Positions 3,501 through 60,293 are shown, counted from the first letter of the stretch. The stretch: 64,000 nt of DNA from Octopus vulgaris (GCA_951406725.2 OX597814.1:133672001-133736000), one strand, 5' to 3'. Numbers and translations are program-made. The notes: generated by a model not told the origin, from the sequence alone.

Positions 3501-3548
<48 letters not shown>

Positions 3549-3695
3549 AAAAGCAATAAAGATTCAAGTTAATTTAAATGAATTTACTTGAATATGGTAC
3601 CTAACTTAGATGCACCAAAAAAAACTATACTGATTTAACAATACAGTAATGTGGGGTGATTATAAGCGAGAATGAAGCAACAAGAATGGATAGGT

Positions 3696-3786
3696 TTTTA
3701 GTACAATCGTTTCATACAAGGACAGGTTTTATTAAAAGTTGCAAAAATTACAGCATATAAACATGTCCCGTACTCATCAGCTAAAA
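3696..3786 (-). ncRNA. Type I hammerhead ribozyme motif (PLE pseudo-LTR)
   Basis: UUUUAG-CUGAUGA-GUAC..GUAU-GAAA-C GAUU G-UA-CUAAAA; 6-bp stem I; GUA cleavage triplet. Confidence 0.8.
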
Positions 3787-4314
3787 TACATGTGAGTTCT
3801 CTAGACATCCTAGTGGTTGAGGCTATACTCATGAAGTAATGTAGATAATTAAGTAACATAAACAGATTTCAAAAGTTCATTAAAGTTCTTTAAAGATGAT
3901 GTACAGTCTTATCACAGAATTTTAAAAAAGTCTTAATAGCATCACAGAGAAGGTGACCTAATCCATAGTGCACATATGAATTTCCAGAGATATGATGAGG
4001 GATTACATACTCACAGAAGACAAATTTATCCATTGTTAATTACAACGAGGTGGGTTTCAATTCCTGCTTATTAGCATTACAGAGAGGTTGAATTAATCCT
4101 TTGTATAGATGCACAATTTCCAATGGTGTAGGTGTAAATTTCCAAGGAATTTCATATTCACAGGCGATAAATTTATCAATGGTTGAACACAATGAGGTAG
4201 GTATCAATTCTTGCTATATGATTAGGTATTTGCCACATTAATCACATTACTGCTATTTACAAGAGGCTGTAGCTATTTAACTTTTAAAGGCTGAAGGGCT
4301 TACTAGAGCTGTAT

Positions 4315-4538
4315 AGAATAGAAAAGGGAAGGGCATAGAAGAAAAGAGAGAAAATAAAAGAGGAGGGAGCAAAAAGGGGGGGGAAGGGGGACTCAAAGAG
4401 AAGAGAAAAGGAAAAAGAGAATAAGAAGAAGAAAAAGAAAAAAGAGAAAAGAGAAAGAAATAGGGAAGGAAGGGAAAAAAAGAAAAAGAAGAAAAAAAAG
4501 AAAAAGAAGAAAGAAGAAAGAAAAAGAAAAAAAGAGGG
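4315..4538 (+). repeat. Polypurine (A/G) low-complexity tract inside the PLE
   Basis: About 220 bp that is almost exclusively A and G. Confidence 0.85.
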
Positions 4539-5282
4539 TTCTAGTTATACAGAAGAATTAGTAGACTACAAGTCTGGTTTTAATTTACAGGCATCTAGGA
4601 ATTAGAGGAGAATATTATTCTTTGACCAGTTAAAACAGCTAATTTATTGCTGTTGAAATCAGCTATGAATTTAAAGAGAATCTAAAGAGATAACACAGTT
4701 AGGGGTTTCGGGGTCAGATGCTAAAATCACCAGAAAATACATTAGGGAAAACTAGGTATAATCTTATCAAAAAGTCATTAAAATTTACTTATTTAATTTA
4801 TTCATTTTATTGTCTTAAGGAGTTGCCGTTTTTATTCATACATTGACGGACTACAGGTCAAATCTTAGAAGATCATTTAAAATGTGTTAGGGGATTGTCT
4901 ATCATAATGAAGATAATCATATTATCACCGAGGGAATAGTCTCATTTATTTAATTTTGAAATAGAATTATGGGTCTATAGTAACTCATTTTAATTAATTA
5001 GAGTTATGCTAATTAAATTAGATTAAGTTAGGAACTAAAATTAAAAATTACAATTAAGATTTAAAATTAAGAGTTTAAAAATTTAAAAATTGTGAGTTTG
5101 AAATTAAATAAAGCCTCAATTAAGCAGCGAATAAGTGCTATTCATTTCCCTGTTCTCAAAAAACTGATGCAGATATAAGGAAAAAGATAACTGTAGTGTG
5201 AGAACTCTTAGTTATCTACTTAAAGCAGTGCTATACCATTAGAAATCAGGTTATATCTATCTATCTAGTTACGAAAATTCAA

Positions 5283-5705
5283 TCATTTAAAATATTTTAA
5301 AGTCTTCAATTTAGCGTGGACACAAACTTGACCTAGTTCGATATGGTTATTCAATAGGTTTCTATGTTTTCTATGCTTTAGAATTTCATATGTCTCCATG
5401 GAGCATAGTTGGCAACCAACCCTACTATTTTTATACGGAATTGCTCTCCTAACTATTTCCCAATTAAGGTTATAATTTTTATTATTATTCTTGAGTTCCC
5501 AGATTTTGTTTGAAAGCGTGGTGGTACCAGCTTTATGACGTAATTTAAAAGTCGAGATGTGATTTCTAACTCTAGCTAAAAAATTAATTGTACATCCAAT
5601 GTAATAATATTTGTTATTCTCCGTGGATATGGTACATTTATAGATTACATTATTTTCCCCACATAGACCAGGTGCCGGGCATTTAGATTTTATTCTACAC
5701 TCACA
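5283..5705 (-). pseudogene. GIY-YIG endonuclease domain of a PLE (open frame without an upstream start codon, so absent from the ORF track)
   Basis: Manual translation: CECRIKSKCPAPGLCGENNVIYKCTISTENNKYYYIGCTINFLARVRNHISTF...TLSNKIWELK...WEIV...CQLCSMETYEI...LLNNHIELGQVCVH...stop. Shows VIY..YIG, the conserved R, E and LN. Confidence 0.87.
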
Positions 5706-5709
5706 TGTA

Positions 5710-5800
5710 TTTTAGCTGATGAGTACGGGACACGTTTATATGCTGTAATTTTTGCAACTTTTAATAAAACCTGTCCTTGTATGAAACGATTGTACTAAAA
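5710..5800 (+). ncRNA. Type I hammerhead ribozyme motif (inverted pseudo-LTR copy)
   Basis: ttttag 5710-15, ctgatga 5716-22, 60-nt stem II region, gaaa 5783-86, gta 5792-94, ctaaaa 5795-5800. Confidence 0.8.
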
Positions 5801-5861
5801 ACCTATCCATTCTTGTTGCTTCATTCTCGCGTATATATATATATATATATATATACATGTA

Positions 5862-6594
5862 CATGTTGCTAAACTGACAATGAAATGTAGACGGCTGGAT
5901 GGATGGATTCTTAGAACCTTTAGAACCTTTAGAACAAGAGAACAAGAAACCATGATGGTCCTCTGGAAGACACTTGTCCTAAGCCACTTTGACTATTGCT
6001 CTCAGCTATGGTCACCATCCAGTGTCAAGTTGATCTCAGAACTTGAGGCGATCCAACGAAGCTACACAAAGAAGATAGCCTCTATGCAGAATGTAAGCTA
6101 CTGGGAAAGACTCAAGAGATTAAAATTATATTCCCTGGAGCGTAGGCGGGAAAGATATGCCATAATATACATCTGGAAGATCCTGGAGGGAAGTGTCCTG
6201 AACTTTGGCATCGAGAGTTACGCAGAACTGGACGCCACTGCGTGGTGCCTAGGACTCCAAACCTGCCATCAAGATGTAGGACAAGATTCTGTGATAGCCT
6301 GGGCTTCCGAGGCCCCACAGCTCTTCAATATCCTCCCGAAGAACCTGAGAGACCTGCATGGGGTGGATACAGATGTCTTTAAAATGAAGCTGGATCTCTT
6401 CCTGTCAGGTGTCCCAGATGAACCAACTTCACGGCAGGAGGGGCAGATGAGGGCAGCTGCATCGAACTCTCTCATGCACCAAATAGCAGTTGCTAGAAAG
6501 CCTCCATGAAGTGAAACCAAGTAGCAACACCAAATGGCGGTGCCCCAGCATGGCCACAGTTCATAAGCTGAAACTAGAATCAATCAATCAATCA

Positions 6595-6598
<4 letters not shown>
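5862..6598 (+). mobile_element. 5'-truncated CR1-group LINE: ORF2 C-terminus, 3' UTR and (ATCA)n tail
   Basis: LWKTLVLSHFDYCSQLWSP..ELEAIQRSYTKKI..SYWERLKRLKLYSLERRRERY..FKMKLDLFLSGVPDEP; internal frameshifts; tetranucleotide tail. Confidence 0.85.
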
Positions 6599-6660
<62 letters not shown>

Positions 6661-6845
6661 ATTGAATTTTTATTTTTGGGAAACGTTTTGAATTTGCAAA
6701 TAAAGTTCTTATTCCATTATTCCTGCTACAGTCTAATTGGTGAGCCAGCTTTTTGAAGCTGCACCGAGCTGTACCGGTATCATGTAGAATAAATATAGTA
6801 ATAATAACAATATTCATTTGATGGAATTTACACACACACACAAAC

Positions 6846-6902
<57 letters not shown>

Positions 6903-6905
<3 letters not shown>

Positions 6906-7081
6906 CTTAAATAATGAGGGTAGAAATTGATATCAATCAATTAACATCAATTTAAACCAGAGGTCAAGCATATTAAAACGAAATCCGAAGATTTAAAAAT
7001 TATATTACTATTAATAAGAGTAATGATTCCGATATAGCATATAAGAATCCACTTTAGTGGTCATTCCTCTTATTAATTGTA

Positions 7082-7083
<2 letters not shown>
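6903..7083. mobile_element. Short (TA)n-flanked cassette, probable PLE terminus
   Basis: 7011-7082 is nearly identical to 2659-2729; the left end resembles 62325-62400. Confidence 0.55.
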
Positions 7084-7147
<64 letters not shown>

Positions 7148-7152
<5 letters not shown>

Positions 7153-7527
7153 ACAAGATAAGGGCAGAAGAAAAATTCTAATGCCAGATACGCCGAAACA
7201 AAAAAATTGTCGATAACCATTAAATTTATGCGTCTCGAAACAAACCGATAGAAATCTCTAAAAAATTCGTTATTACAGTATTGGTCCAATTTCGGGGTTA
7301 ATTCACAAGAAATTTTCCCCACTTCAGCGGCACATACGCGAGATATAAATGAAATACTTATTCATACCCATGAAAAAGCAAGCACCAAGTCCCGAGCAGA
7401 CTTAAGTACCCCAAATATATCCAAAATAGAAAAGTCTTCGGCGCACCTCGAGACACGTGTGATTCGAACTAGAAACCTTCAGAGAGTGATAGAATCCGGA
7501 AGTTGAACACTAATCTAATTATAAAAT

Positions 7528-7530
<3 letters not shown>
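7148..7530 (-). mobile_element. (TA)n-flanked PLE pseudo-LTR remnant with a degenerate hammerhead
   Basis: Minus strand at ~7285-7330 reads CUGAAGU-GGGG..CCCC-GAAA (A9 substituted). Confidence 0.55.
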
Positions 7531-7565
<35 letters not shown>

Positions 7566-7579
7566 TACATACATATATA

Positions 7580-7940
7580 ATATTACATAAAAATACAAAA
7601 TGGGACAAGAACACGAAACATCCAGTCAGTTAGGTGGTACAAAAAAAGGACAACAAAACATCCAGATAGACGAAACAAAGAAACAAGGACGGATCATTCA
7701 GACTTTTCTTTCCTCAGTCGACTTCCAGATTATCTTTGCAATTTCGGCTGGTTATACTCGAGATTGCACCAATCTGGCCAGCCCCAAGGTAAAGCTAAGC
7801 TGAGAGCGTTAGGTTCCTTAGAAGAAAGCAGCGAATATATACGAAAACAAGGACAACAAATGCGAGAATGTTACACAAATACGAATAAGAGGACATAACA
7901 TCAGTTGTCGGACAAAATAATGGAAACACCTAGCAACATA
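7580..7940 (-). mobile_element. Probable PLE pseudo-LTR remnant
   Basis: Starts at (TA)n; related in reverse orientation to 3290-3500; minus-strand CUGAGGA near 7712-7718. Confidence 0.45.
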
Positions 7941-8074
7941 GCATCCTAATTTTGGAATATCTATAAAACCGTCAAAAGCTTGTTTATTTTTATGTCTTTT
8001 CATTTATTATTAGTGTTGCCTTATATGTTTGCTAAAATTACTGTTTCTTTTCAGATATCAGAAAAAGGTATTTA

Positions 8075-8612
8075 AAATGCATTAAAATTACAGATCTATC
8101 GGACTTTCAGAAAGGTCAAATTATTGGTGCTCGTAAAGCAGGCGCTAGCGTAACGAAACACCCGAAATGTTCGGTATATAAAGAAGTATTGTCTCGAAAG
8201 TAATGACAGCCTTTGAGAAAGAGGGAAAAACCTCCTCGTCAAAACAAAATTCTGGAAGAAAACAAAAACTTTCAGATAGGATCAGTCGGACTCTTACGCA
8301 AATCGTTAGAAAGGACCATAAAAAGTGTAGCTCCCAAAATTTCTGCAGAGATTAACGACCACATTGAGAACCCAGTTTCCACAAAATCTGTTCGCTGGGA
8401 GCTGCACAAAGCCGAGTTTCACGGGAGGGCTGCAATCAGAAAAACCACTACTTTTAAAAGCAAACGTTGCAAAGCGTTTAGAGTGGAGTAAAAACCTACA
8501 GAATAGGTCCCCAGAGCAGTGGAAGAGTATTATTTTCTCGGACGAGTCATCCGTTACCTTATTTCCAAACACCAGCCAAGTATGTGTGTTGAGACAACCA
8601 AAACACATCCTC
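8075..8612 (+). pseudogene. Tc1-family transposase fragment (HTH region to the first catalytic D), frameshifted
   Basis: DLSDFQKGQIIGARKAGASV..KQNSGRKQKLSDR..VSTKSVRWELHK..RAAIRK/PLL..KRLEW..EQWKSIIFSDES. Confidence 0.88.
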
Positions 8613-9378
8613 TAAACACATCTGATTTCTGTTCGTACACTCAAAGGAAAATGAAATTATTAATCTGAATATTATTTTCGACATATATACACATATTACC
8701 ACTAATCATTTTGCCCGGCATGCTAACGATTCTGCCAGCTCACCGTCTTACACTTCTCTGGTATTAAAAACAAAAAATAAAACAAACACAGATTTTAAAG
8801 TTATCATTTTCTTTATAGATATGGCTTCATAATGATCTCAAACATATATCAGCTTCCATTTAGTTCTAACATAAACACATATCGAGTACTCTTACACTGT
8901 TGAATGCTTCACATTATTTTTAATTGTTTATTGTAAATTCATTTCATGGCTTCATATAGTGACGTGAATATTAACAATATTTGGCTTAAATATCTTTCAC
9001 TAAGAAGCCTATCGATAGTGGTATGTTATTGAATATTTTAAATACACGTGTTTATAATTAGTTCGCAGAAAGTCTTAAATGCAAAACATCAATTTTATGC
9101 TAAATTCGCCCACAGAAAGTTGAAATATGTAATTAATTTAACAATATCACAAAATGGTTTCTTGAATATGATGACATTGCTGTGATGTTTCATTTTGTAT
9201 ACATTAATAATTAATCTGTTGTAATCTTTTAGTGGTCCCTTTATAATACACATAATTTAAAACTGTCACGATTTAAATATCCTTCAAAAATGCATTTTGT
9301 CTTTCACCATCATTTTCTTGGAATAGACAGCTAGACAAGTATAAAGAACATTAAAATAATATATATACATATATATAA

Positions 9379-9773: not shown

Positions 9774-11544
9774 TGTATATATGTATGTATATATATACAA
9801 GCACACACACACAAATATGTATATGCATATCATATCCCATTTTTGTATATCCCATATCCCATACATACGCGCAGGCACACATACACACACACACATACAC
9901 GTGCTCGCATATAAATAAACTTTGTAGTGTAATAGTGTGTTAGCACTCTCTTCAGGTCATGTTTACAATTTTCACATTCAATAATTAAGATTTTATGCCA
10001 CCCTTGCAAGATTCTAGATCCTATTAAAGTAAACGTGCTTTGCAATACAATGAACTGAATCACTTAGCAAAGTGTCCTTACCTTCACTACAAAAGTATGC
10101 ACATTATGATATACGGACGTTCTACCAAATCTGTTCAAAGCCTCTTACTTTCTCGTTTTTTGTATTCTATTTTCAAATAATATATAAGAATTGTATATAT
10201 TCCTAACTTTCGGATGACAGCTATTAAATTTGCTTCAACAGAACATTTATCCATCAGTTTCAGGACATTCATTGAATACGATTTTCACTTGCTGAATTTG
10301 TGATTAAAATGATACTTTGGAAACATTTTCTAAGTTTTGTCAGTTAATCTGTAGAAATAGACTGCAATTGTTACTTAATATTTCATGATGTCAACTCCCA
10401 TGTAAGTGTTTGACTTAATATTTAATCAAAACACTTTATACTTCCACATATAACTTTAATTATTGCTTGGTTTTATCGTACGTGATCTGAGAACATTATT
10501 CGGTTTCATCTTCGACGCCAAAATCTACCACACTTCAACAATTATCTTCAGCTTAAAAACAACATAAAATTTTGATTTGTCTTAACTAAAGAGGATTTTG
10601 CGTAAAACATGAAATTCCAATTTCATTTATGACGCGTACGTATTAAATGCAGTCAAAATATTATTACCTGGTTTGACTTTAGTTATATACATTCCTAACC
10701 ATTCCTAATTTTTTTCACACAGATACTATAATACAAGCGCGCGCACACACACCCACACACACACTCACAAGCATACACACACATGGCAAATCAGCTACTT
10801 TCTTTTACCTATGCAACAATGATGGACACGGTCGATATTTAGAAGCAGTGAAGTCGGACAGCAATTGAGAAGTTCGATTAACTTTCAGGAAAATAACTAA
10901 CTAGAATTTGTAATGTCCATCTGCTTTTCTATATATGTGACAAACTTAGAACAGTCGATTGGTATAATGGATAGAGAGTAGTACAAAATACCTTACTATA
11001 TTTAATTATATCTTTTTATATTCCTCCTTATTCATTATCTCGCAAGGAATAATTTCCATTTACTTTCTCTCCATTGGCGAATCTATAAAATATGCGTCAA
11101 TCAAGGCCTGTGTTGCGTTTAATCGACTACACTACTGATATTTAGTATAAGGGTTTGTGCCTTTGTTAACGATCAATATGTTGGAGAAAATTGATGGAAA
11201 TCAGATAAAATATAGAGTCGAAACAAGTAGCTGTTTCGACTTAAGAAGAAATCTCGTCCATGACTGTTTGGGAATTAACCCTTTGTGTCCTAAAGTATTA
11301 TTCAAGATTCTGTTAGAGGTTAGTTGTACTCTGAGTGCTATATAACTACGAGGAACTGATGATAGAAAGTGATATCGGATGAGTCTGACCTGTAAATTGG
11401 AGTTGAAGATGATGGTAGTGACGGCGATGTTAGTAATTTTGATGATGATAAGCTGAAGAAGAGTGGATGAGAAGGCGGATCCAATGCATCGATAGATTAG
11501 GTGAAGAAATGGTATTTGCGATATATATATATATATATATATAT

Positions 11545-11940
11545 TATAATTAAGGGCTAAAGAAGGTTATTCTAAAGCCAATACACTGATTTATCCACTT
11601 TTAATCCACTTGTTACAGAAAAATTGAACTGAAAGCGGGCAACTAACCTTTGGAAATTTAAATTTCGTTATCTCTATATTGAATCAATTTCGGAATTAAT
11701 CCCATAAAGGATACATTCGTCGTCAGTAGAGCTTACGAGGGAATATAAATAAAATACTCACATGTGATTATGGAAAAAGCAGAAGCTAAATACACAACTA
11801 CATTTAAGTACATCCTAAAAATAAAAACTCCTTGGTCAGTCTCATAACAACGTGTTGACCTTTCGCCGCTACATATTGTAATGGTTACCGGTCCCCTTGT
11901 AACAAGCAGTGAGTTTACTACTAACAATATAGGATGAAGT

Positions 11941-11942
<2 letters not shown>
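11545..11942 (-). mobile_element. (TA)n-flanked PLE pseudo-LTR cassette
   Basis: Flanked by (TA)n on both sides; contains the hammerhead at 11672-11731. Confidence 0.7.
11672..11731 (-). ncRNA. Type I hammerhead ribozyme motif
   Basis: CUCUA-CUGACGA-cGAAU..AUUCc-GAAA-UUGA u UCAA-UA-UAGAG; perfect 5-bp stem I and palindromic stem III; first stem II pair mismatched (C-C). Confidence 0.72.
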
Positions 11943-12704: not shown

Positions 12705-12980
12705 ATGTATTTCAGTCATTAGATAGCTGTGGTGCTGGGACACCGTCTGGCCGAGCTTTTAGTCGAATGAATCCACTCCAGTACTTATTGTTGAAAGACA
12801 AGCACTTGATCTATTTTTCTCTTTTGTCGAGCCATTAAGTTACGAAGACGGAAACAACACAGCTACACCGGTTGTGAAGCGTAGCGGGAGAAAATCATTA
12901 ACACAAAGATACACACGCACACACACACACACATGCACACAAACACACGCACACACGTACATGTATACATAATACATACA

Positions 12981-13018
<38 letters not shown>

Positions 13019-13190
13019 GCGGGCTTCTTTCAGTTTCCGACTACAAAATACGCTGTCAAGGATTTTGGTCAGCCCGAGACTATAGTAGAAGTCACTAGAA
13101 TTAAATGCTACGTAGTGGGATTGAGTCCGGAACAATATGGTTGGAACCATGTGGTTGGAAACCAAGATTTAAACCATGCAGCCACACCTA
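12705..13190 (-). mobile_element. Bipartite tRNA-derived SINE (head, internal microsatellite, body with CR1-like tail), uninterrupted copy
   Basis: Head 13017-13190 matches the reverse complement of 37940-38106; body 12705-12910 matches the reverse complement of 38835-39040. Confidence 0.75.
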
Positions 13191-19433: not shown

Positions 19434-20269
19434 ACATGGAAAAAGGCGAGCAACAGAAATAATATTTTAGGATTATAAACCTGGAGAATTACAAGACATG
19501 TTATTACACTTGGAAATGTTCAGGGCAACTTATTACATCTGGAAAAGTACAGAAAAAAAAATTTTTACTTAAAATATTGCAACTAAGGATAAAATTCCAA
19601 ATAAAATATTTAGATTTAGAAAATAGCCTTTATTAAAACTAAAAGTTATACCGTCTATTTGTTATTACTTGTTACTTCTATTGAAAATTAAAAATAGCTC
19701 AAAATATTTTTTGCACTTTAAAAAAATTCATTTTTTTAATTATTAATTAATAATTAGAAATTTGAAAATAGGTTATAAAAATAACAGTAATTCTTAGTAC
19801 AATAAAAAGAATAATACAAAGAGTAGTTATATATTACAGTAAAATTTACCTATAACAACAAATTCACAGTAAAGTTATTGTCAAGTCTTCACATTTATAG
19901 TCTTGACCCAATGCCTATTTTTTACATAATGAATTTGCCTATCATATATAGTATTCTACTTTGCATAAAACTTTAGCTATATTGATACTTCTGGCTCTAA
20001 TTTTTAAAGTATTCTAGTGTGACAGTATTTTTAAAAAATGGTGGTACCTATTTTTAATTATAATGTTACTTTGTAAATTAAAATCAAATAATTTTTGATA
20101 TTAAAATTTTAACCTTAGCTGCAATATTGCAAGTAAGAATTTTCTCGTCCTATACTTTGCCAGATGTAATAAGTTGTCCTGAATTTTTCCAAATGTAATA
20201 ACTTGTCCTATGATTTTCCAGGTATATAATCATAAGAATATTATTTCTCTTGCTCGCATTTTTCCATGG
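19434..20269. mobile_element. Foldback/MITE-like element with diverged ~170-bp terminal inverted repeats
   Basis: catggaaaaaggcgagcaacagaaataatatt... pairs with ...aatattatttctcttgctcgcatttttccatg; AT-rich non-coding core. Confidence 0.65.
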
Positions 20270-23128: not shown

Positions 23129-23299
23129 AATGTAATTTGATGGTTCTTAAGCTTTCTCAAAATTCAAATTCCTGTCATTCCCTGCTTCCATAAAATATTT
23201 TCCCTGTTTGGATTGTTTCAACAAATGTAAGGTAAAATGGATGCATACTGTGTTTGCTTTAAACGGATATCAATATTCTATATCTTTGATGTTATATCT

Positions 23300-23539
23300 T
23301 TTACTTGTTTAGTCATTAGACTGCGGTCATACTGGTGCACCGCCTTGAAGAATTTTTTAGTGGAAAGAGTTGACCACAGTAGTTATATTTTTAAGCATGG
23401 AACTTATTCTATCGATCTCTTTTGCCGAAGCACTAATCTGTGGAGACGCAAACACACAAATACTGGTTGTCAAGTAGTGGTGAGGGACAAACACAGACAC
23501 AAAACACACACATAGATGCGCGCGTGTGCAAACAAACAC

Positions 23540-23623
<84 letters not shown>

Positions 23624-23828
23624 GTCACCAGTCGCCATGATAAGATTGTTAGCCACTGAACACAATTTTCCTCCCCTTGTTTGTCTCCTTGTTTTTCCTG
23701 TGTCCCTTTCTGTAGAAGAGCGTAGGCTCGAAACGTAAAATACTTTTTTCTATTCCTGAGCGTTATACTAATACATCTGTTTGTTTTGTACACCACCTGT
23801 CTTCGTCTTTTGTTTTTTCGTAAACTCT

Positions 23829-23896
<68 letters not shown>

Positions 23897-24055
23897 TTAC
23901 GATGAGCTTCTTTCAGTTTCCATCCACCACATCCACTCAGCAAACTACGTTCAGCCCGAGGCTAGAGTAGAAGACACCTGCCCAAGGTGCCACGCAGAGG
24001 GACTCAACCCAGACTCATGTTGTTGGGAATCAAACCTCTTACCACATAGTCACGT
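23300..24055 (-). mobile_element. Bipartite SINE with a PLE pseudo-LTR (23621-23832) nested in its internal (TA)n
   Basis: Body 23300-23515, (TA)n, insert with degenerate hammerhead 23707-23740, (TA)n, head 23898-24055. Confidence 0.75.
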
Positions 24056-24680
24056 CTTTATTACGGAAGTTTTGTTCGAGTGAAACATTGCTGAAAGTGA
24101 AAATTATTACTTTAATAGCGTTAATCTCGACATTCTATTCAATCGACAATAAATAAATTCTGAATATCCTGCTGTTATATCAAATAAAAACAATACCGAA
24201 TTTTAAATTTATATTTGAACTATTTGCACTTGACCTCTCTGAGAATATTATCCGATAATTTAATACAAATGAGGCGCCATATATTATTATATACCAAAAT
24301 TATTTTTTCAGTTTGGCTACACCAATTTCATTATTGCAAATAGCAATGGCTTTATGAAAACCTGTAAATACGAAGAATTTAACGAAAATAGTATATTCGT
24401 AATTGTATATTTTATCTTGGATATAGATTTTAAAAAAAACTTTCATACATGTGTGTGCGCGTGTGCTTGCGTGTATGTATATATGTACGTGTGTTTGCGT
24501 GTATGTATATATGTACGTGTGTTTGCGTATATATATATATATATACATATAGATATATATATATACATATATATATATACATATATATATATATATGTAT
24601 GTGTGTATGTGTGTATGTATGTATGTATGTATATATGTACGTGTGTTTGCGTGTATGTATATATATATATATATATACAT

Positions 24681-26830: not shown

Positions 26831-26896
<66 letters not shown>

Positions 26897-35359: not shown

Positions 35360-35442
<83 letters not shown>

Positions 35443-44075: not shown

Positions 44076-44514
44076 GGATCTTTTCGGTTTGAACGGCAGT
44101 TTTTTCTAGCGGTGTCATATGAAATTGTCACCTATAATTATGACCCTAGTATCGATCTATTGCATTTCAATCTGTTTTAGGGTTAGGGTTAGTTAGGGTT
44201 AGGGTTAGGGTTAGGGTCGGGGGAAGGGTATCTTTTTTTCTTCAGAAATGTAAATAAACCCAATCTATTTCTTAAACGAGGGAGGTATTCATACGGCACA
44301 TAATATTTTCACCTCAATAGACGTCATTGATTGGTTGAAATTGCAGAAATTGAAGGAAAAAAAACAACAAATATCTTACAAACTATAGAATTTTCTCAAT
44401 AAAGCCAAGAGAAAAAGATGTTTTATAAACACATTCTACCAGTATACGAAGTTTAAAAGTGTTTAGTTACGTGGAAATTATTTTTAAAAACTGCCGTTCA
44501 AACCGAAAAGACCC
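44076..44514. mobile_element. MITE with 29-bp TIRs and a perfect 8-bp TSD (Merlin-like), nested in the Gypsy element
   Basis: TSD acaatatc at 44068-44075 and 44515-44522; TIR gg(a/g)tcttttcggtttgaacggcagttttt. Confidence 0.9.
44177..44216 (+). repeat. Interstitial (TTAGGG)n, about 6 units, inside the MITE
   Basis: Read directly from the sequence. Confidence 0.9.
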
Positions 44515-46508: not shown

Positions 46509-46690
46509 CTTTTGTACTCTAGGCACAAGGCCCGAAGTTTTTGGGAAGAGGGCCAGTCGATTAGATCGGCCACAATACGCAAATGGTACTTAATTTATCG
46601 ACCCCGAAAGGATGAAAGGCATAATCGGCAGACGAAATATCGTAAAGAATTTCACCCGGCGTGCTAACGTTTCTACCAGCTCGCCGCCGT
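46509..46690 (-). mobile_element. SINE (third family) with a ~16-bp TSD
   Basis: Flanks agtagaaa(a/t)gaatatt at 46493-46508 and 46691-46706; core gcctttcatcctttcggggtcgataaattaagtacc on the minus strand. Confidence 0.82.
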
Positions 46691-46718
46691 AGTAGAAATG
46701 AATATTACAGAATATTTA

Positions 46719-46900
46719 AGGCGGCGAGCTGGCAGAATCGTTTGTACGCTGCATTTCGCCCGTCTTTAATGTTCTGAGCTCAAAATTTTACCAAGGATGA
46801 CTTTGCCTTTCATCCTTTGAAGGTACATGAAACAAGCAGCAGTTGAGTACTGGGGTCAATGTAATCGACTTACAACTTCCCCCGAACATGCTGGCCTTTA
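46719..46900 (+). mobile_element. SINE of the same family, head-to-head with the previous copy
   Basis: ggcggcgagctggcagaatcg..gactttgcctttcatccttt..ctggggtcaatgtaatcgact; another head fragment at ~8709-8750 (-). Confidence 0.8.
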
Positions 46901-48142: not shown

Positions 48143-48509
48143 AGACAAAAATGGGTAATAAGTGTATATGCCATATTTAGGGTTTTTTTCTCCTTCATCA
48201 GCATCCATCTAACCCACACATGCCTCCGAACACATTGGTTATATAGCCACCGCATACAGCGGTATTAAGCTATTGGATATACATAGTATATTATGGATGT
48301 ATAACGAAATTCCAATTGCCTACAAGTGTTTAATATTTACATAGGCTCTCCAGGAATGGGTTTGATATGTAAAGAGATATATCCAATAATTTAACACCGC
48401 TGTATGCTGTGGCTATATAAACAATGTGTTCTGAGACAAGAGTGGGTTAGATGAGTGCTGGTGAAGGGGAAAAAATCCCCCAGATATGACTTATTACCCA
48501 TTTTTGTCT
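48143..48509. mobile_element. Diverged inverted repeat (~135-bp arms), probable old PLE pseudo-LTR pair
   Basis: agacaaaaatgggtaataagt.. / ..acttattacccatttttgtct; eroded ctg(a/g)tga-agg..ccc core in both arms. Confidence 0.6.
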
Positions 48510-49384
48510 AATGGATGAGGACAACTGTGTGAAGAAGTGTCACACCATAAAATTGGAGGGAACCTGTGGAAGAGGTACACTCAAGAAGGCCTGGGATGAG
48601 GTGGTGAAGTACGACCTTCGAACGTTGGGCCTCACAGACGCAATGACAAGCGACCGAGATCTTGGAGATATGCTGCGTCTAAGAAGACCCGGCAAGCCAA
48701 GTGAGATCGTAGCCGTAACCTACGCCAGTGTCGCATAACCGGCCTCTTTAAGAGTACTCTTCAATCGTCGAGCAATATGCTGTGCTTGACAAGACCTGTT
48801 GAGTCAAATGAAATCGTTTTCGTAACCGATGCCAGTACCCACTGACTGGCACTCGTACCGGTGGCACCTAAGAAGCACCATTTGAACGTGGTCGATGCCA
48901 GTGCCGCCTGACTGGCTCCGTGCCAGTGGCACGTAAAATGCACCATACGAGCCTTGTCGATGTCGGTGCCGTCTGACTGGCACCTGTGCCGGTAGTACGT
49001 AAAATGCACCATACGAGCCTTGTCGATGTCAGTGCCGCCTGACTGGCTCCTGTGCCGGTAGCACGTAAAAAGCACCATACGAGCCTTGTCGGTGTCAGTT
49101 CCACCTGACTGGTTCCCGTGCTGGTGGCACGTAAAACGCACCAATCGAGAATGGTTGATGCCAGTGCAGGCTGAGTGGCTCCCGTGCTGGTGACACGTAA
49201 AAAGCACCTACTACAATCTCGAAGTGGTTGGCGTTACGAAGGGCATCTAGCTGTAGAAACCTTGCCAGATCAGATTGGAGCCTTGTGCAGACTCCTGGCT
49301 TGCCAGTCGTCAGTCAAACCGTCAAAATCATGCCAGCATGGAAAGCGGACGTTAAACGATGATGATGATGATGATGATGATGAT
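48510..49384 (+). mobile_element. 5'-truncated RTE-clade LINE: ORF C-terminus, tandem-repeat 3' UTR and (GAT)n tail
   Basis: MDEDNCVKKC..LEGTCGRG..KKAWDEVVKYDL..LGLTDAMTSDR; ends catggaaagcggacgttaaac(gat)n. Confidence 0.85.
48828..49208 (+). repeat. Six diverged 65-66-bp GC-rich tandem units in the RTE 3' UTR
   Basis: Units start at 48828, 48894, 48959, 49025, 49091 and 49157. Confidence 0.9.
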
Positions 49385-52394: not shown

Positions 52395-53741
52395 TAGTTT
52401 TATTTTTATAGCGTGCTTTCACTTCACTACCGAGCGCAGCTCTGTGTGCCTTGGGTATGTGCTGTGATTTGTTGTGATGCTCTGATGGTTATTGTATGGA
52501 AAGTGTTCTGCGTAGGATGTGTGCAGTGCCTAGTAGTGCAATTTTCTGTATGTTATATGTGTCTGTAAGTCCTGGTGTTTTTGTTATGTATTTGTCTGAA
52601 TATTTTTTTATCATGCCTAATGCACCTACTATGATAGGAATTGTTTCTGTTTTCAGATTCCACATTCTAGTTACCTCTATTTCCAGGTCTTTGTATTTTG
52701 AGAGTTTCTCCATTTCTTTTAGAGACACGTTGTCATCTGCCAGTATTGATACATCAATTAGAAAGCATTTTATTTCTTCATGATCTCTGACAACTATATC
52801 TGGTCTGTTGGCCTTAATTTCTTTATCTGTGTGTATCGGCATATCCCAGAGTATGGTTGCTTTCTCGTTTTCTGTGACCTTTTCTGGTGTGTGCCTATAC
52901 CATCTTTTTTCTGTTGTTATTCCATAATGTTGGCATAGCTTCCAATGTATGTAGGTTCCAACTCTGTCATGTCTGTGAATATATTCCTTCTTATCCAGGA
53001 CTGGGCAGCTAGAGATAATATGATTTATTGTTTCTTGTCCATCTCCACATATTCTGCAGTTACTTGTAATATTTCTTTTCATTACATGTTTTTGGTAATT
53101 TCTGGTGGGGAGGCTTTGGTCTTGTGCTGCAATTAAAAATCCCTCTGTTTCTGCTTTGAGTCCTGAGCTTCTCAACCATTGCTGGGATTTTTCTTTGTCT
53201 ATTTCTTTTGCGTTTAGTTTAGTGCAGTATTTACCATGAAGGGGCTTTTCTTGCCATCGTTTTATCATGGTTCTTTGCTGTTCTATTTTTAGTTTGGATT
53301 TCATTTGTTTTATAGCTTTTGTTGTTTCTTCATCATCTTCTTCTTCTTCTTCGTGTTTATTAGGTGGTATGATTTCTTGTTTGTATTTGTCAGCTTCCTT
53401 AAATACTGAGAACAGTTTTTTGTTTTGCTCGTGTTTTGCTGCTATCTGGATCAGTTTTCCTTCCTTCTGAAGTAGATATTTTTGCAGTCCTATGGTGGTT
53501 ATTTTATAGTAGTTTTCCAGCTGTATAAGGCCTCTACCACCTTCTATACGTTGTATATATAGTCTTTCTATGTCAGATTTTGGGTGATGCATCCTAGATC
53601 CTGTCAGTATTTTTCTTGTTTTCCTATCTATTTTGGACAGTTCATTTCGTGTCCAGTTAAGGATATTGTAGCTGTAACTGATAACTGGGACAGCTAAAGT
53701 GTTGATACCTATTATCTTGTTTTTAGCATTAAGCTCTGTTT
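52392..53741 (-). mobile_element. 5'-truncated Dong/R4 copy, near-identical to 1203-2547, with an open frame and (TTA)n tail at 52296-52391
   Basis: ORF 52489-53592 matches the C-terminal half of the first copy with only a few substitutions. Confidence 0.93.
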
Positions 53742-53772
53742 ATTATTCTTCTTCTTCTTCTTCTTCTTCTTC

Positions 53773-54248: not shown

Positions 54249-54834
54249 GACATTACTACTAATAATAATAACAAAACATTTGTATATCGGATTGTTTCGT
54301 TTCAATCTAAATTCAATAAAACAGTATACATATCAATTATTTTGTAGTTGTCAAAAATGTTAATGTTTGTCACTTAAAACTTATCACGTTTTAGATACTT
54401 ATAAAACCAAATCAATGATTTTCTTACAAGATAGATAACTGCACCCACAGTAATGTCAATAATCTTCGTATAACCATCACAGTCTGATCACCATATGTTT
54501 CATTCCAATCATTGCATGATTGCTATCTTCAAAACAAGTAGTAACTGCAATGACAAAACACCCAATGTCAGAGGTTTTTCGTGGTAAATTTAGATACAAT
54601 CTGTATAAAGATTTGTAATGCGCTGTTGAGATTTGTATCGTCCAACAAAATAAATCTTAGGTGCGTAAAAATACGATAAATCCAATATCTATTTTTAACT
54701 TCGATGTAATTGCATGTTATGGAGCAGTCAAACATACATACATACATACATACATACATACATACATACATACATACATACATACATACATACATACTTA
54801 CATATATACATACATATATATATATATATATATG

Positions 54835-55516
54835 TAAAACAATATGTACAGGTGTCAATTCATTACAGCCGTTTCAAGCGACTCCTTTAATTGATTAATG
54901 AAAACATTACATCATTTAAAAGAACCGTTCTCGTCAGATGACCGCATAGACTTCAAACATAAAGTATATCAACATTTCCTTAACATATTCACATCAATAA
55001 TGGAACTATAAATATTTACATTATTGCTTTTGTCATATCTGTGGCAGAAAGAGTTTAGAAAATAATGCACACCTCGTCAAGTCTACTATAATTTAGAGAG
55101 TAACAAAGAAAATAGTGGGGAGTCAGGATAAAGAGAGTGGTGGCCTAGTTACTAAGACTTAGAATATTCTGTGTAGTATGTAGTCTTCAACCATTTAAAA
55201 TCAAATCCATTGAGAGTTGTCCACTGTATTCTAATTAACGGTGATAAATCAATTAATGTCACACAATCTACTAAACTCTTAATGTCCTAGAACCATATAT
55301 CTAGCTCCGTCTACTCTGTCGACAAAAGAAACAATGTAAATATTCTGAGTTCCATTATTGTCGTGAATATGTTTAGGAAATGGTGGTATCCTTTATGTTT
55401 GAAGTATATGCGATCATCTGACGAGAAGACTTTTTCAAATGACGTAATGTTTTTATTAATCAATTAAAAGAGTCGCCTGAAGCGGCCGTAATGAATTGAC
55501 ACCTGTACATGTTTGT
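54835..55516. mobile_element. PLE cassette with diverged ~190-bp inverted pseudo-LTRs, each with a hammerhead motif
   Basis: Arms 54844-55035 and 55321-55510; hammerheads at 54860-54941 (-; UCAU-CUGACGA..GAAA-C GGCU G-UA-AUGA) and 55414-55494 (+; GAAG variant, loop GGCC). Confidence 0.78.
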
Positions 55517-55862: not shown

Positions 55863-55943
55863 CCATGGACGCGCGTTTCGGAATTAGATCGGTATAAAGA
55901 ATATAGAATTATACTTTACCAACCCTTTTCCTCATCAGCATGG
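55863..55943 (-). ncRNA. Fully canonical type I hammerhead ribozyme motif
   Basis: CCAUG-CUGAUGA-GGAA..UUCC-GAAA-C GCGC G-UC-CAUGG; all core nucleotides intact, GUC triplet, extended stem II (GGUUGGUA/UACCGAUC). Confidence 0.9.
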
Positions 55944-56183: not shown

Positions 56184-56377
56184 GGTCCCGGGTTGATTCG
56201 GGGTTAACCACAGTAAGTAAGGTACTCAATACATAGCAGAGTAAAATTAATTTATTATATAGAAGGAGTTCTACAGGACTAGTACTGTTCATTCAAGAGA
56301 AATCTTCAGGAAGCACTGAGGAGCTTCCTGAAGATTTCTCTTGAATGAAGCAGTACTAGTCCTGTAGAAGCTCCTTC

Positions 56378-56385
<8 letters not shown>
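56181..56385. mobile_element. (TA)n-flanked mini cassette forming a ~60-bp-arm hairpin, with degenerate hammerhead cores
   Basis: Arms 56254-56314 and 56322-56385; cctgaaga-tttctcttgaat-gaa in both arms. Confidence 0.65.
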
Positions 56386-56485: not shown

Positions 56486-56519
<34 letters not shown>

Positions 56520-56968
56520 TGTATGTATGTATGTATGTATGTATGATCATAAAAAGTCAGTAGTGTGAAATAAATATATTTATTTAATCATTTGTCAACC
56601 TTAGGACCATGGCCTTTTGGCAGCCTTTATTGGGTAATAATATTTTCAGTGGATATAAAATATTTTACCATACACTAAAATTATTATTACATGCTGAACG
56701 CTGCAAAACGACCGTGCTCCAAAGGATGACAAGTGATTACATAAATATATTCACCTTTGACACCTCCTGTCTTATTATAGGTTATATATACGTCTCATGA
56801 AATAATTTCAGCGATTCATTATCCTGGATTTCAGCTGTACAGAATGTATTATACTCCACCGTATTGAATTACTACGTGATCTGCCAACCGGGTCCGTTAG
56901 AGGAGCTTCCCCTGACTGCTACACAAGATTCCATATATTACAACACAAGCTTGTACACACACACATAG

Positions 56969-57346
56969 TAATAGTTATCGCCAAGCTAATATGGCAGTCC
57001 AGAAATATAGGACGAATGCTGCCGTTGATTAGCTCCAAGAGGCCATCGCCTCTAGTTATGTGCCACACGAACCTTTGTCCATTATAACCTTCGAACAGGG
57101 GAGGTCAGCCGCTTCTCCTTGCTGGTCAGGCATCTGCAGACTAATTTCAGGGTATTTGCCCCTTATCAATACAGAGCAGTCGAACCCAGCAGGCGTCGCT
57201 ACTGACAGTCTGTTCGAAGGATTATTTACTTATATTCAGTGGAATACATCCACTGGTTTTCAAAAATAGAAATATTAATATTTCTAAGTCTCTCTCTAAA
57301 GGAGACTACGGCAGCGGTGCTGGATATTAATAGTTATCGCCAAGCT
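56969..57346 (-). mobile_element. PLE-like pseudo-LTR bounded by a 19-bp direct repeat, with a degenerate hammerhead
   Basis: taatagttatcgccaagct at 56969 and 57328; minus strand 57134-57174 reads CUGUA-UUGAUAA-GGGG..CCCU-GAAA-UUAG-UC-UGCAG. Confidence 0.6.
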
Positions 57347-59140
57347 GCGTCTTCTGTTGCACGTTGTCAAAGGTTCAACTTCCTTTCAAGATCTTCGTGC
57401 CGTTAATGGCCATATTAATGGCCAAAGAGGCCTGCTCTAAATTAAGGTCATCTTGATAACAATGACCATTATGACCTTGCCCTCTAAGAAGCATCAATGT
57501 TGCATTCCCTCATTAATCTTCGTAAACTTTCGCCGTTATGCTGGTGTACTGGAAGAAATATGGCGACAGCATGTGCTTGGACATCCTTATGCAACCTCGT
57601 TACGCATCAACTGACATGACTTTACAGTTTACAACTGCAATGTACAAATGTGGACTCATACTTCTAGAAGATACCATTTTGGAAATGGGTGGTCGTCTCT
57701 TGAACAACAACTATGTCGAATCCCCTTACAGAGAAAATGAGGCGCTGTTTAATCGGCACTGACTAAGGGAGACATACTATGACGCTGCCAGGCTTCTATC
57801 CTACGTTGAAGAAAGAGAACAGTTTTTGACAGTGCTTGAAGACACCACAGATGGCATCTTCTTCCTTGATGCGTCAGGTGGCACAAGAAAGGCATTTCTC
57901 CTCAACCTCCTTCTTGCCAAAGTGGACAGATTACCATTGCAATAGTGTCTTCAGGAATAGCATCCACATTGCTAGACGGTGGCAGAACAGTCCATTCAAC
58001 ACTTAAGCTTCTCCTTAACATCAGACATGTTGAAAATCCTACCACCAGTATAAACAAGAATTCTGATGGGGCAGTTGTCTTTCAAAAATGCAAATTGATT
58101 GTCTGGGACGAGGGAATAATATCCCTTAAGAATGCACTTAATGCAATCGACACATCGCTACAAGAGATGCGCTACAACTCTAAACAGTTCGGAGACGTCG
58201 TTATTCTTCTTGCTGGTGACTTTCGTCAAACCCTTCCTATTATCACAAAAGGCACACCAGCTGATGAATTAAACGCTTGTCTTTAAAACTCTCATTTCTA
58301 GTGCTCTGTCTTGTCGAAAATGTTGACCATAAACATGCGTCCCATTCTCCACCGACAAGATTATGACAATTACTTTGCTTCAAAGTAATTGATGTCGAAA
58401 ATGGGAGCTTACCACTCGAAGTAAACGATTTGGCTGACATAAGTACCATCCGTAACTACGTCTCCAGCTTTAAGGAGCTATGCACAACAGTTTACTCCAA
58501 CCTCTCTACCAATTACGTTAGTCATGAACGGATGTGTGAAAGAGTCATCTTAACTCCAACAAATGCCACCGTCCAAGCCCTAAACACATGTCTGCTTCGT
58601 CAACTTCTTACCCAAGAACGATGCTATGCTTCGGTTGATTCAGTTACTTATCCAACACAAGTAGCGTTTTTCCCAACAGAGATTTTAAACTCACAAGAAC
58701 CATCAGCATTGCCAGCGTGTAAACTTGGCCTTAAACTTGATTGTCCTATTATACTCTTGAGGTTGTCCTGTTATACTTTCCTCGGCTTTGCAATGGCGCT
58801 CGATTGGCTGTTAAGCAAATGTTGGAAAACGTTCTTGAAACCACAATCATCACAGAAAAAGGCACTGCCGAATCTGCTTTTATTCATCGAATTCCACTTA
58901 TTCCGACTGACTGTGTTTTTGCGATGATAAGAGTCTAATTCCAGATTCGATTAAGTTTTGCCATGACCATTAACAAACCCCAAGATCAGTTACCAAAACT
59001 GGTTGGGATGGACCTCAATACACCATGCTTTTTCACACGGAAAGCTGTACGTGGGGTGTTCCAGAGTTGGAAAATCGACGAATCTATTCTACTATGCTCC
59101 CGAAAGATTGACAAAAAAAAGTTTACGAGACAGCCCTCCA
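57345..59140 (+). pseudogene. Helitron Rep/Hel fragment (PIF1-like helicase) with many stops and frameshifts
   Basis: LRLLLHVVKGSTSFQDLRAVNG; FFLDASGGTRKAFL (decayed Walker A); SSGIASTLLDGGRTVHS; LIVWDE; LAGDFRQTLP; LCNGARL; FAMTINK; HGKLYVGCSRV. Confidence 0.92.
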
Positions 59141-60001
59141 ACAGATATTCCGTTGAGTTGAAATCCTCTTCGGGTTGGCCTTTATTGCTCTTACTTACTC
59201 CTCACGATAGGTTACGTTAATCTTCCAACAAATGCCCGTTGTTAAATTCAAGCATTTTCTCATTTCAATGCACAGCTTCCTAGATGTCTCAGATAATTTC
59301 ATATAGCAATTAAACATATTGCTTACAGATTGCCTTCGTGTCCATGGAAATGTTGTGTATGCATTTTCTACCGATTGTTCAGCCAGCCAGTCAATTAAAC
59401 AGCATTCCGAACGATAATTTTTCATATTTTCACATTTTAATACACGACATCTGCAAATAAAACATGTTCCTTTTTGAATACCACTTATTTTTTATGTAAC
59501 GTCTCAACTATGTCAGCTAATCCTCAATTTTAACCATAAACAGAAACGGAACTACACTATTTTAGACTCCAGCTCTTTCACCAACTTGCACCGTCTAATG
59601 GACGGGGGTGACGTATGTAACTGTGTGCATAAATTTTACACATTAGGAAACGGGTCAAATCAACATTCAAGTCGAAGTAGAGGATTCACCATCCTTGTTA
59701 ACATTTAAGTTTTTAATGAAAGTTCATATTCATCTCACTGTATTACAGTAAATTAAGAAGCACTGATATACATACATAAAACAAAACGTACAAATCTGCA
59801 CACATACATATTAAAATAGCCCGTTGATGCTGTTGAAATTCCATGAAGGTACCTTAGATCTGGGTTAGAAATCGATTGTTTCTCTATTGGCAAGAAATCT
59901 TGAAATACAAGTGAATAATAACATACACACACAAAGAGAACAAATCGAAACGTGTTGTACTTAATAAAGTCTAATACACTTTCCATCTATTTTATTAGTA
60001 C

Positions 60002-60092
<91 letters not shown>

Positions 60093-60097
<5 letters not shown>

Positions 60098-60291
60098 ATC
60101 CAAACATGAAAACACAAAGAGAAAGCACAACAACGCGAGGACGTGGAACAAACATAATATTATTGGATGGTCAGGAAGGAAGGGAAGAAGGAGGGTTTTA
60201 CGTTTCGAGCGGAGCTCTTCGTCAGAAACATAGGAAAAGGAAAGATCCAGAGAAGGGAAGACAGAGGAAAAAAAATCGTCAACGGTACACA

Positions 60292-60293
<2 letters not shown>
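60093..60293 (-). mobile_element. (TA)n-flanked PLE pseudo-LTR with an ultra-minimal hammerhead (60195-60229)
   Basis: GUUU-CUGACGA-a-GAGC UCC GCUC-GAA-ACGU-A-AAAC; related termini at 23621-23832, 25380-25575 and 62950-63035. Confidence 0.72.

Follow-up and report, generated by a model that had tools for sequence, protein, structure and literature searches.

Metazoan genomes are known to carry about 2,000-9,000 minimal hammerhead ribozymes each, in heterogeneous families made up mostly of single copies from truncated Penelope-like elements (PLEs), with pairs on opposite strands lying 100-700 bp apart (Cervera and de la Pena 2014, PMC4209133). PLE hammerheads depend on dimerization and have low activity (PMC4209133), and they receive protein assistance (PMC11167929). 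Hydra-clade PLEs with (TA)n targeting and hammerheads are listed for Octopus bimaculoides (Craig et al. 2021, PMC8557442 supplement). Non-LTR retrozymes, in turn, are self-paired units of 150-450 bp with less than 45% GC (PMC7229834). A hammerhead swarm and (TA)n-targeting Hydra PLEs in Octopus are thus largely published already (PMC4209133, PMC8557442), and an initial annotation of the 64-kb stretch of Octopus vulgaris DNA analysed here (the window) overstated its case in speaking of a 'hidden swarm', since heterogeneous hammerheads by the thousand per metazoan genome were on record (PMC4209133). In the literature searched we found no prior report of the long helix II, the A>G changes at A15.1 and in stem I or the 359-bp monomer described below.

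Nine motifs annotated as complete are confirmed as real type I hammerheads, predicted from their sequence to be self-cutting, and the coordinates proposed for the motifs were correct. Type I was taken to mean a CUGANGA...GAAA...UH core joining helices I-III, with the open end at helix I. With mismatch-tolerant scoring all nine score at least 10, whereas the mean number of motifs at that score in dinucleotide-shuffled controls, the check that had been proposed, is 0.06, clearly lower. An exact-core descriptor (stems I and II of at least 3 bp, palindromic helix III) matched seven of the nine sites and nothing else in the window, and yielded 0.03 matches per window, at most 1, in 100 local dinucleotide shuffles; a stricter form that disallows an extra or mismatched base after A9 retained three sites only. 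Stem I is weak in the motif at 34731, and that at 54860 has one helix II mismatch. Two further hammerheads, at 26723 (score 12) and 57133 (score 11.5), are complete with a U3-A8 core, which brings the complete-core motifs to 11 in 64 kb; because 9% of 200 shuffles contain at least one U3-A8 match scoring at least 11, these two need context to be called. G3-C8 and A3-U8 cores were not found above chance in the window.

The two U3-A8 motifs had been annotated, near 26729 and 57140, among eleven 'decayed' sites; they are hammerheads, but complete ones. Most of the eleven stand as complete, damaged or remnant: those at 7290, 29266 and 55418 are damaged copies with an intact family member also in the window, those at 23710 and 25454 are relatives of the 60195 motif, both with A6U, and those at 36930 and 56326 were judged by eye to be remnants inside hairpin cassettes. 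The sites at 21210 (core and helix II alone) and 48190 (core alone) are not supported as hammerheads. The annotated spacing of one motif 'every few kb' holds as an average, but from about 37.1 to 54.8 kb there is none that we could support. One motif per roughly 6 kb, the figure for this one selected window, would if general be far above 2,000-9,000 per genome (PMC4209133).

The at least eleven complete type I motifs fall into about ten sequence families, bearing out the proposal of many families, and their helix III is palindromic. Repeats were found by masked self-blastn, as microsatellites swamp an unmasked search, and comparisons within the window involve two to three copies per family. 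The two family B copies differ by 4 two-sided pair changes, counted by eye; other pairs differ mainly by decay. Like the minimal PLE hammerheads of PMC4209133, these motifs show many families, opposite-strand pairs, an extra base after A9, the U3-A8 variant, a palindromic or absent loop III and predicted dimer dependence. Helix II measures 7-8 bp in that collection, whereas here it is often a long hairpin.

Judged on its sequence features, the element at 3547-5830 (family A; Table 1) is a 5'-truncated Hydra-clade PLE. Its endonuclease (EN) has the CxCx5C linker, CxxC before E, CxH after N and no CCHH, as read from the translation; the Hydra clade, including Hydra-1_Obim, has the same arrangement (PMC8557442). 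The insertion into (TA)n, the hammerhead in the pseudo-LTR (pLTR), the inverted 5' copy and the tail are all present. Members of the clade likewise insert into (TA)n and carry, close to their 3' end, a type I hammerhead whose helix III is palindromic and which often has U.U at 10.1-11.1 (PMC8557442); an inverted 5'-truncated copy is shared with Penelope-13_HM. Family A is not Hydra-1_Obim itself, from which its EN and hammerhead differ by eye. The EN matches PF01541 below cut-off (E=0.006); a HMMER search returned 3410 relatives, which are RT-EN proteins, and all 78 RT-EN loci compared from metagenomes match the EN, with identities of 30-42%. Word-index protein searches with two EN fragments gave no match, and a metagenome scan queried with the window's EN gave no relative. 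A comparable hammerhead lies 79-744 nt behind the ORF in 45 of the 78 loci, compared with about 1,500 nt in family A, whose 1.5-kb 3' region, when searched for a further ORF, gave low-complexity or short frames only. Family A is multi-copy. At both 3549 and 3661 other copies give way to (TA)n, one with a different flank, and other copies run on past the inversion point at 5705; the copy in the window is truncated at the linker, short of the upstream RT with RWK and DKT motifs expected of the clade. Contig depth, which cannot rank parts, is greater at the 3' end than at the EN, as 5' truncation would give.

Table 1. Hammerhead-bearing and related features of the window (strand '.', both or none assigned).
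Feature	Position	Strand	Details
Family A element	3547-5830	-	5'-truncated Hydra-clade PLE between two (TA)n tracts
Family A layout			Inverted pLTR copy, EN, ~1.5-kb 3' region, pLTR with hammerhead, ~120-nt tail
Family A hammerhead	3696-3786	-	Type I, in the same sense as EN; GUA site, 6-bp stem I, 60-nt helix II, helix III a palindrome
GIY-YIG endonuclease C-terminal ORF, 142 aa	5283-5711	-	CxCx5C linker
Inverted pLTR copy, 132 bp	5699-5830	+	99% identical to 3666-3797
Hammerhead in inverted pLTR	5710-5800	+	Antisense to EN
Family B, first copy (379 bp, flanked by (TA)n tracts)	7149-7527	-	Hammerhead 7273-7333, decayed, with A9U and a mismatch in stem I
Family B, second copy (399 bp, flanked by (TA)n tracts)	11544-11942	-	Hammerhead 11672-11731
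Family H, 211-bp copy flanked by (TA)n tracts	23621-23831	+	Minimal hammerhead 23704-23743, A6U
Second Hydra-like EN remnant cassette	24680-25196	-	EN 24860-25196, frameshifted; 3' half hammerhead near 24715-24760, (TA)n beyond
Family H copy	25381-25575	+	Decayed minimal hammerhead 25448-25487 (A6U, U.G in helix III)
Cassette between (TA)n tracts	25603-26831	+	GIY-YIG-like remnant 25603-25830; complete U3-A8 hammerhead 26723-26770, 68 nt before (TA)n
Family C hammerhead	27132-27216	-	60-nt helix II, 3-bp stem I; U.U at 10.1-11.1; (TA)n 238 nt downstream
Family D inverted cassette	28588-29478	.	Hammerhead 28825-28895(-), helix II 38 nt; decayed copy 29260-29330(+), C3U
Family E AT-rich inverted cassette	34435-35364	.	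Hammerhead 34730-34831(-), helix II 71 nt; 156-bp tandem duplicate without helix III
Hairpin cassette	36874-37090	.	Decayed hammerhead pair, about 36914-36974(-) and + arm
Family F inverted cassette	54833-55513	.	Hammerhead 54860-54941(-), helix II 55 nt; decayed copy 55413-55497(+), G at 15.1
Family G hammerhead	55863-55943	-	52-nt helix II, GUC site, core perfect
Hairpin remnant beside (TA)n	56256-56383	.	Hammerhead 3' part; stem I 5' strand lost
Retrozyme-like monomer, 359-bp unit	56969-57346	-	19-bp terminal direct repeat, GC 44%
Hammerhead of the 359-bp unit	57133-57175	-	Single U3-A8 type I, stem I extended
Family H, 197-bp copy flanked by (TA)n tracts	60094-60290	-	35-nt minimal hammerhead 60195-60229

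Most motifs are very probably the 3' pLTR ends of heavily 5'-truncated PLEs inserted at (TA)n, one of them Hydra-clade. A (TA)n tract of at least five repeats lies within 250 nt on the 3' side of seven of the nine motifs (1.45 expected, p=2e-4) and on the 5' side of one, a strand-polarised adjacency that was not built into the descriptor. The tract is distant on the 3' side in families G (1036 nt) and E (394 nt), and the sites at 36930, 55418 and 57133 also have none close by. Besides family A, same-strand linkage to a GIY-YIG ORF is confined to the cassettes at 24680-25196 and 25603-26831; a profile search of the window gave no Hydra-clade reverse transcriptase (RT) remnant, and Hydra-based profiles gave no RT or GIY-YIG ORF beside the short copies of families B, C, D, E, F, G and H. 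Because only three cassettes have EN and none has RT, the PLE link of the others is drawn from architecture. The PLE radiation first proposed stands as regards the 3'-side (TA)n and at least one Hydra-clade cassette, while the expected linkage to PLE ORFs extends to these three cassettes and to none of families B-H.

Following published PLE biology, the GIY-YIG endonuclease would nick (TA)n, and RT, starting within the tail 30-250 nt beyond the 3' side of the ribozyme, would mostly stop early; the ribozyme-bearing end alone would be deposited, often together with an inverted second copy. Since helix III is a 4-11-nt palindrome, unstable as a hairpin, cleavage by each motif is predicted to be weak and to require dimerization or a helper protein. 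Helix III energies in eight motifs range from -0.2 to -13.3 kcal/mol as a self-duplex and from +1.8 to +6.2 as a hairpin; the ninth (60195) has no loop III. Most single copies would be inert relics, and read-through of inverted cassettes may give long duplex RNA in which the ribozyme is masked and adenosines are edited to inosine.

Here helix II is often prolonged, beyond a small internal loop, by a long hairpin. It exceeds 30 nt in six of eight window families and in none of the 45 motifs from metagenome Hydra loci, where it spans 10-30 nt as against 60 nt in family A. Distal helix II, tested for folding in eight families, gave z from +1.1 to -4.1. Selection on the extension is suggested at most, because p<0.05 was reached in only two of the eight (two more at 0.05-0.054) and the distal part of family A does not fold independently. 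Long-stem or A6 variants may already be described in Lunse et al. 2017. Loop II measures 3-10 nt in 26 Hydra rows (PMC8557442), against the 60-nt helix II of family A. Naiad_Ovul is flagged 'HHR_half_core', which prompted a comparison with Naiad. A Naiad origin of the long-helix motifs was rejected: six 11-nt motifs have 0 occurrences in the Naiad-bearing supplement, where line breaks could hide some, and the 3' ends of Naiad_Obim and Naiad_Ovul are by eye unlike the cassettes.

A competing account, possible though in our view the less probable, regards the short cassettes (family H, about 200 bp; family B, about 390 bp; the 359-bp unit) as non-autonomous, retrozyme- or SINE-like units with fixed ends that borrow PLE proteins. 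Family H ends do fall in a narrow range, starting 100-117 nt upstream of the cut site and ending 95-106 nt downstream, with an identical 5' start in two copies, and the family B copies have 5' arms of 249 and 266 nt and 3' arms of 131 and 134 nt. The 5' parts of family B align poorly, however, PLE ends too are expected to have fixed 3' ends, there are two to three copies per family, and no cassette of this group stands in a tandem array. A6U marks two of three family H copies, and a change at A6 lowers activity (PMC3088659, for A6C). The 200-400-bp (TA)n cassettes first suggested as non-autonomous fit 5'-truncated PLE ends about equally well.

The best retrozyme candidate is instead the site near 57140, annotated as decayed and lying outside (TA)n. 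Its unit, 56969-57346, looks like a retrozyme monomer and not a PLE end, by the features of its sequence. In size, GC, self-pairing (fold z about -7), extended stem I and the lack of any ORF of 120 aa or more it resembles non-LTR retrozymes (Cervera and de la Pena 2020, PMC7229834; Li et al. 2026, preprint 10.64898/2026.07.22.740005), and its 359 bp compare with 350-390 bp in mussel units. It differs in its U3-A8 core and in being single: one unit plus its terminal repeat is present, and the window holds no tandem copies of it, tandem arrays of hammerhead-bearing units being the defining trait of these retrozymes. The retrozyme hammerhead pattern was absent from viral contigs.

Truncated PLE ends in inverted pairs would offer a substrate for editing. 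In family A, A>G variants at 3697, 3698, 3710 (A15.1) and 3729 occur in two of three presumed-RNA runs (X2 and X7), in none of the third (X6) and in 0 contigs of a presumed-DNA run (X1); the comparison is of contigs from unmatched individuals, different samples and studies, with RNA status presumed. Each change is found in 12-18 distinct contigs of X2, and X1 has single low-depth variants elsewhere. A>G and T>C together make up 59/109 changed places in X2 and 22/31 in X7, against 12/49 in X1 (Fisher p=5e-4 and 6e-5). These changes at core A15.1 and in stem I are consistent with ADAR editing of family A RNA, which is their likely cause. We think it rather unlikely, in view of that excess and of the contig counts, that they are genomic, the alleles of a diverged subfamily or strain expressed in X2 and X7, although the differing sources and guessed RNA status of the runs, the absence of the changes from X6 and the use of a single DNA run, about 80% of it read, speak for this. 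Porath et al. 2017 (PMC5625713) describe an exceptionally high hyper-editing signal in octopus and massively edited lizard Penelope elements, with inverted repeats as substrate, in passages that do not mention ribozymes. A literature search found no report of base editing in a hammerhead core.

Chance resemblance within AT-rich repeats that abound in hairpins (MITE-like foldbacks) is an extremely improbable explanation of the motifs, and refuted for the nine main sites by the shuffles, the polarised (TA)n adjacency and the EN linkage; it is possible for 21210 and 48190, and in its favour are the U3-A8 matches in shuffles, several inverted cassettes without a hammerhead and the silence of Rfam, with 0 hammerhead matches in the window at gathering score and none among the 150 of 207 E-value matches listed, which are microsatellite artefacts or trivial.

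The role of PLE hammerheads is still debated. They are weak in vitro, where cleavage is dispensable for insertion, and in Anolis no read ends fall at the cut site (PMC11167929). In octopus, numerous families, among them a young one in inverted-repeat form, meet with very strong ADAR activity. It is tempting to speculate, although we hold it to be distinctly improbable as a whole, that hammerheads with a long helix II are present in octopods in very large numbers and have been overlooked, short-loop descriptors and Rfam missing them; that host ADAR silences them via the inverted-pLTR duplex, converting A15.1 to inosine, such that editing controls the self-cleavage of retroelement RNA; and that the U3-A8 retrozyme circulates as a 359-nt circle. 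Two testable questions arise. Does the long helix II stand in for tertiary contacts or bind the protein of the element, and is the apparent silence of PLE hammerheads in vivo due to editing or to antisense pairing? If neither holds, these cassettes would be ordinary transposon debris, and the gain would be one for repeat annotation.

Within this AT-rich, microsatellite-rich animal DNA, a strict type I hammerhead descriptor returned three matches against a shuffle mean of 0.02. A relaxed descriptor, permitting an extra or mismatched base beside the core and requiring a palindromic helix III, recovered seven of the sites claimed by the initial annotation and no other match in the window (shuffle mean 0.03). 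The nine sites proposed there as complete are correctly placed, and all score at least 10 in a mismatch-tolerant scheme, a frequency well above the 0.06 sites per shuffled window (maximum one in 100 shuffles). Rfam at gathering score gave no match anywhere in the window.

Eleven further sites had been put forward as decayed hammerheads. Alignment identifies five of these (7290, 29266, 55418, 23710 and 25454) as damaged relatives of intact window motifs, and two (36930 and 56326) are, by eye, remnants inside hairpin cassettes. Two more, at 26723-26770(+) and 57133-57175(-), prove to be complete hammerheads with a U3-A8 core, whereas 21210 and 48190 find no support as hammerheads. This core is a covariation known among PLE hammerheads (PMC4209133) and has been reported as active (PMC3088659). 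With 9% of shuffles yielding one match of at least 11, the two U3-A8 motifs observed are modest by score alone, and each stands in a telling context. The related stretches 23704-23743 and 25448-25487, some 28% diverged, both carry the core change A6U, suggesting that a subfamily whose ribozyme was altered or dead has spread.

Masked self-alignment sorts the nine motifs into eight families (A-H), bearing out the suggestion of many independent lineages, and reveals inverted-arm cassettes at 3547-5830, 28683-29469, 34435-35364 and 54841-55513. The proposed embedding in (TA)n also stands, with a definite polarity: by a criterion outside the hammerhead descriptor, seven of the nine motifs have a (TA)>=5 tract no more than 250 nt downstream (expected 1.45, p=2e-4), against only one with such a tract upstream. 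Other inverted or hairpin cassettes lack a scoring hammerhead (19435-20268, 46527-46898, 48143-48509, 56549-56778, 60510-60742, 62427-62513 and 3108-3243), several of them adjoining (TA)n; these may be MITEs, or else PLE ends that lack a ribozyme. One repeat family adjoining (TA)n (3282-3486 and 7645-7859; 64% identical, opposite strands) has a CUGANGA box downstream, not upstream, of a GAAA, and a search of it for hammerhead topology found none.

The expected linkage to PLE reading frames holds for the GIY-YIG endonuclease (EN), which is present in three cassettes; the window yielded neither a reverse transcriptase (RT) remnant nor an ORF tied to any of families B-H. In family A, one pseudo-LTR (pLTR) is inverted (132 bp, 99% identical to the other) and the EN ORF spans 142 aa. 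It contains CxCx5C, a CxxC that precedes the conserved E and a CxH that follows the conserved N, and CCHH is absent, all features of the Hydra clade according to Craig et al. (PMC8557442). That paper and its supplement place nearly all Hydra families in (TA)n, with hammerheads, and include Hydra-1_Obim of Octopus bimaculoides, from which family A is distinct in a by-eye comparison. The closest EN relative is an Octopus sinensis protein (XP_029636861.1, 76% identity), whose title, 'myelin gene regulatory factor-like A', is likely a mis-annotation; Argonauta hians also supplies a top match, so an octopod host is likely.

Family A is multi-copy: among four runs compared, 1638 contigs of X1, a presumed-DNA run, align to the element. 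In other copies the sequence gives way to (TA)n at 3549 and 3661, and still others run on past the inversion point. The 3' region (3787-5282) is unusually long, with imperfect internal repeats (~3930-4260) and a pyrimidine-rich tract on the element strand (4320-4535), on either side of which contigs provide coverage; it is possibly a promoter or intron.

Principal features and other repeats of the window
Feature	Position	Strand	Description
Family A element	3547-5830	-	Inverted pLTR, EN, ~1.5 kb non-coding, pLTR with hammerhead, tail, (TA)n
EN remnant	24860-25196	-	Upstream of (half) hammerhead and (TA)n tract
EN remnant	25603-25830	+	Upstream of (half) hammerhead and (TA)n tract
Retrozyme-like unit	56969-57346	-	359-bp unit containing the 57133 hammerhead
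Broken Helitron-like region	57347-58927	+	PIF1 helicase match (E=4e-28) at 57870-58283; presumed Rep-like stretch, by motif, directly after the retrozyme-like unit
Non-LTR retrotransposon 3' part, zf-RVT domain	1181-2538; 52395-53764	opposite strands	97% identical; both end at (TAA)n/(TTA)n tracts
Third, short 3' end of the same	2789-3070		By self-alignment
Two dispersed SINE-like families	12707-12912; 13018-13149; 23258-23502; 23893-24057; 34171-34331; 35462-35673; 37287-37453; 37948-38113; 38831-39049		Presumably resemble octopus SINEs
Interstitial (TTAGGG)n	44177-44217
66-bp tandem array	48827-49208
Putative decayed mariner-like stretch	~27700-28520		Impression by reading

For comparison we used 78 RT-EN loci from metagenome contigs, drawn from the best 80 of 459 matches; the window EN matches all 78. 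A scoring hammerhead lies 79-744 nt behind the ORF in 45 of them, with a helix II of 10-30 nt in a scan that admitted up to 75. Among the 33 others, the 24 with sufficient downstream DNA were inspected and mostly carry a filter-failing or contig-cut short-helix motif; no long helix II was seen in these. Helix II exceeds 30 nt in six of the eight window families (38-71 nt; Fisher p=1e-6 against the metagenome loci, which include near-duplicates, Hydra membership being established in the window for family A alone). Loop II measures 3-10 nt in the 26 Hydra rows of PMC8557442 and about 30 in two plant PLE-X motifs. On folding, the long helix II is an extended hairpin, commonly with 3-4 bp, then a small internal loop, then a long stem; with core-proximal pairs removed, only two of eight are individually significant. 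Several metagenome Hydra loci share the tandem and inverted layouts of the window, their hammerhead lying 5' of the ORF or in antisense to it (L008, L010, L024, L043 and L050 among them).

The retrozyme-like unit carries a 19-bp direct repeat at its two ends (56969-56987 and 57328-57346), has a GC content of 44% and folds with z of about -7, linear or circular alike; its hammerhead has a 6-bp stem I running on into a distal helix. It is like non-LTR retrozymes in size, GC and self-pairing, but unlike them is not tandem (PMC7229834). The unit resembles a retrozyme monomer and is a candidate member.

Architecture, (TA)n polarity, inverted ends and EN linkage for three cassettes are established here. 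Published PLE work describes nicking at AT-rich sites and internal RT starts that set the tail (PMC11167929). Likewise, EN would nick AT-rich DNA and RT would start internally, fixing the tail, with frequent 5' truncation and an inverted copy; cleavage would be weak, dimer-dependent or protein-assisted, again as published for PLEs. By computed energies, the helix III palindrome disfavours folding back into a hairpin (+1.8 to +6.2 kcal/mol) and favours a self-duplex. On this basis two sense copies are predicted to be needed for cleavage, and most isolated or head-to-head ones would be inert. The two family A arms could pair with each other (computed energy about -226 kcal/mol).

Such arms bear on a second lead. 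On the ribozyme strand of family A, among the 40 variant rows listed of 137, A>G changes (T>C on the plus strand) fall in stem I (3697 and 3698), at the final A of the core GAAA (A15.1; 3710) and at 3729. They occur in 12, 17, 18 and 17 contigs, respectively, of the presumed-RNA run X2, and one contig of X7, from another study, has the first three; no contig of X6 or of X1 has any. The A>G plus T>C share of changed places is 59/109 in X2 (p=5e-4), 22/31 in X7 (p=6e-5) and 17/58 in X6 (p=0.66) against 12/49 in X1, with RNA status guessed and individuals unmatched. Inosine at 15.1 moves cleavage specificity away from NUH. Changes at this position lower activity at least tenfold (PMC3088659). Hyper-editing in octopus, and editing of Penelope elements in lizards, have been described (PMC5625713). 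The pattern is a lead for RNA editing, and any such editing could be no more than a side effect of duplex RNA. Genomic copies at 55413-55497 and 56328-56368 and metagenome locus L003 carry G at 15.1, the same change as in the presumed RNA of family A; this could reflect reverse-transcribed edited RNA, or plain decay.

Heterogeneous PLE hammerhead swarms, opposite-strand pairs and U3-A8 cores (PMC4209133) and octopus Hydra elements that target (TA)n (PMC8557442) are already published, with further known aspects in 10.64898/2026.07.22.740005 and PMC6765202. The literature searched, which did not include Lunse et al. 2017, yielded no long-helix-II class in cephalopods, no edited hammerhead core and no octopus retrozyme. 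Taken together, the hammerhead motifs are real and well supported, mostly additional members of an already known class, beyond which the window offers one structural variant and two leads.
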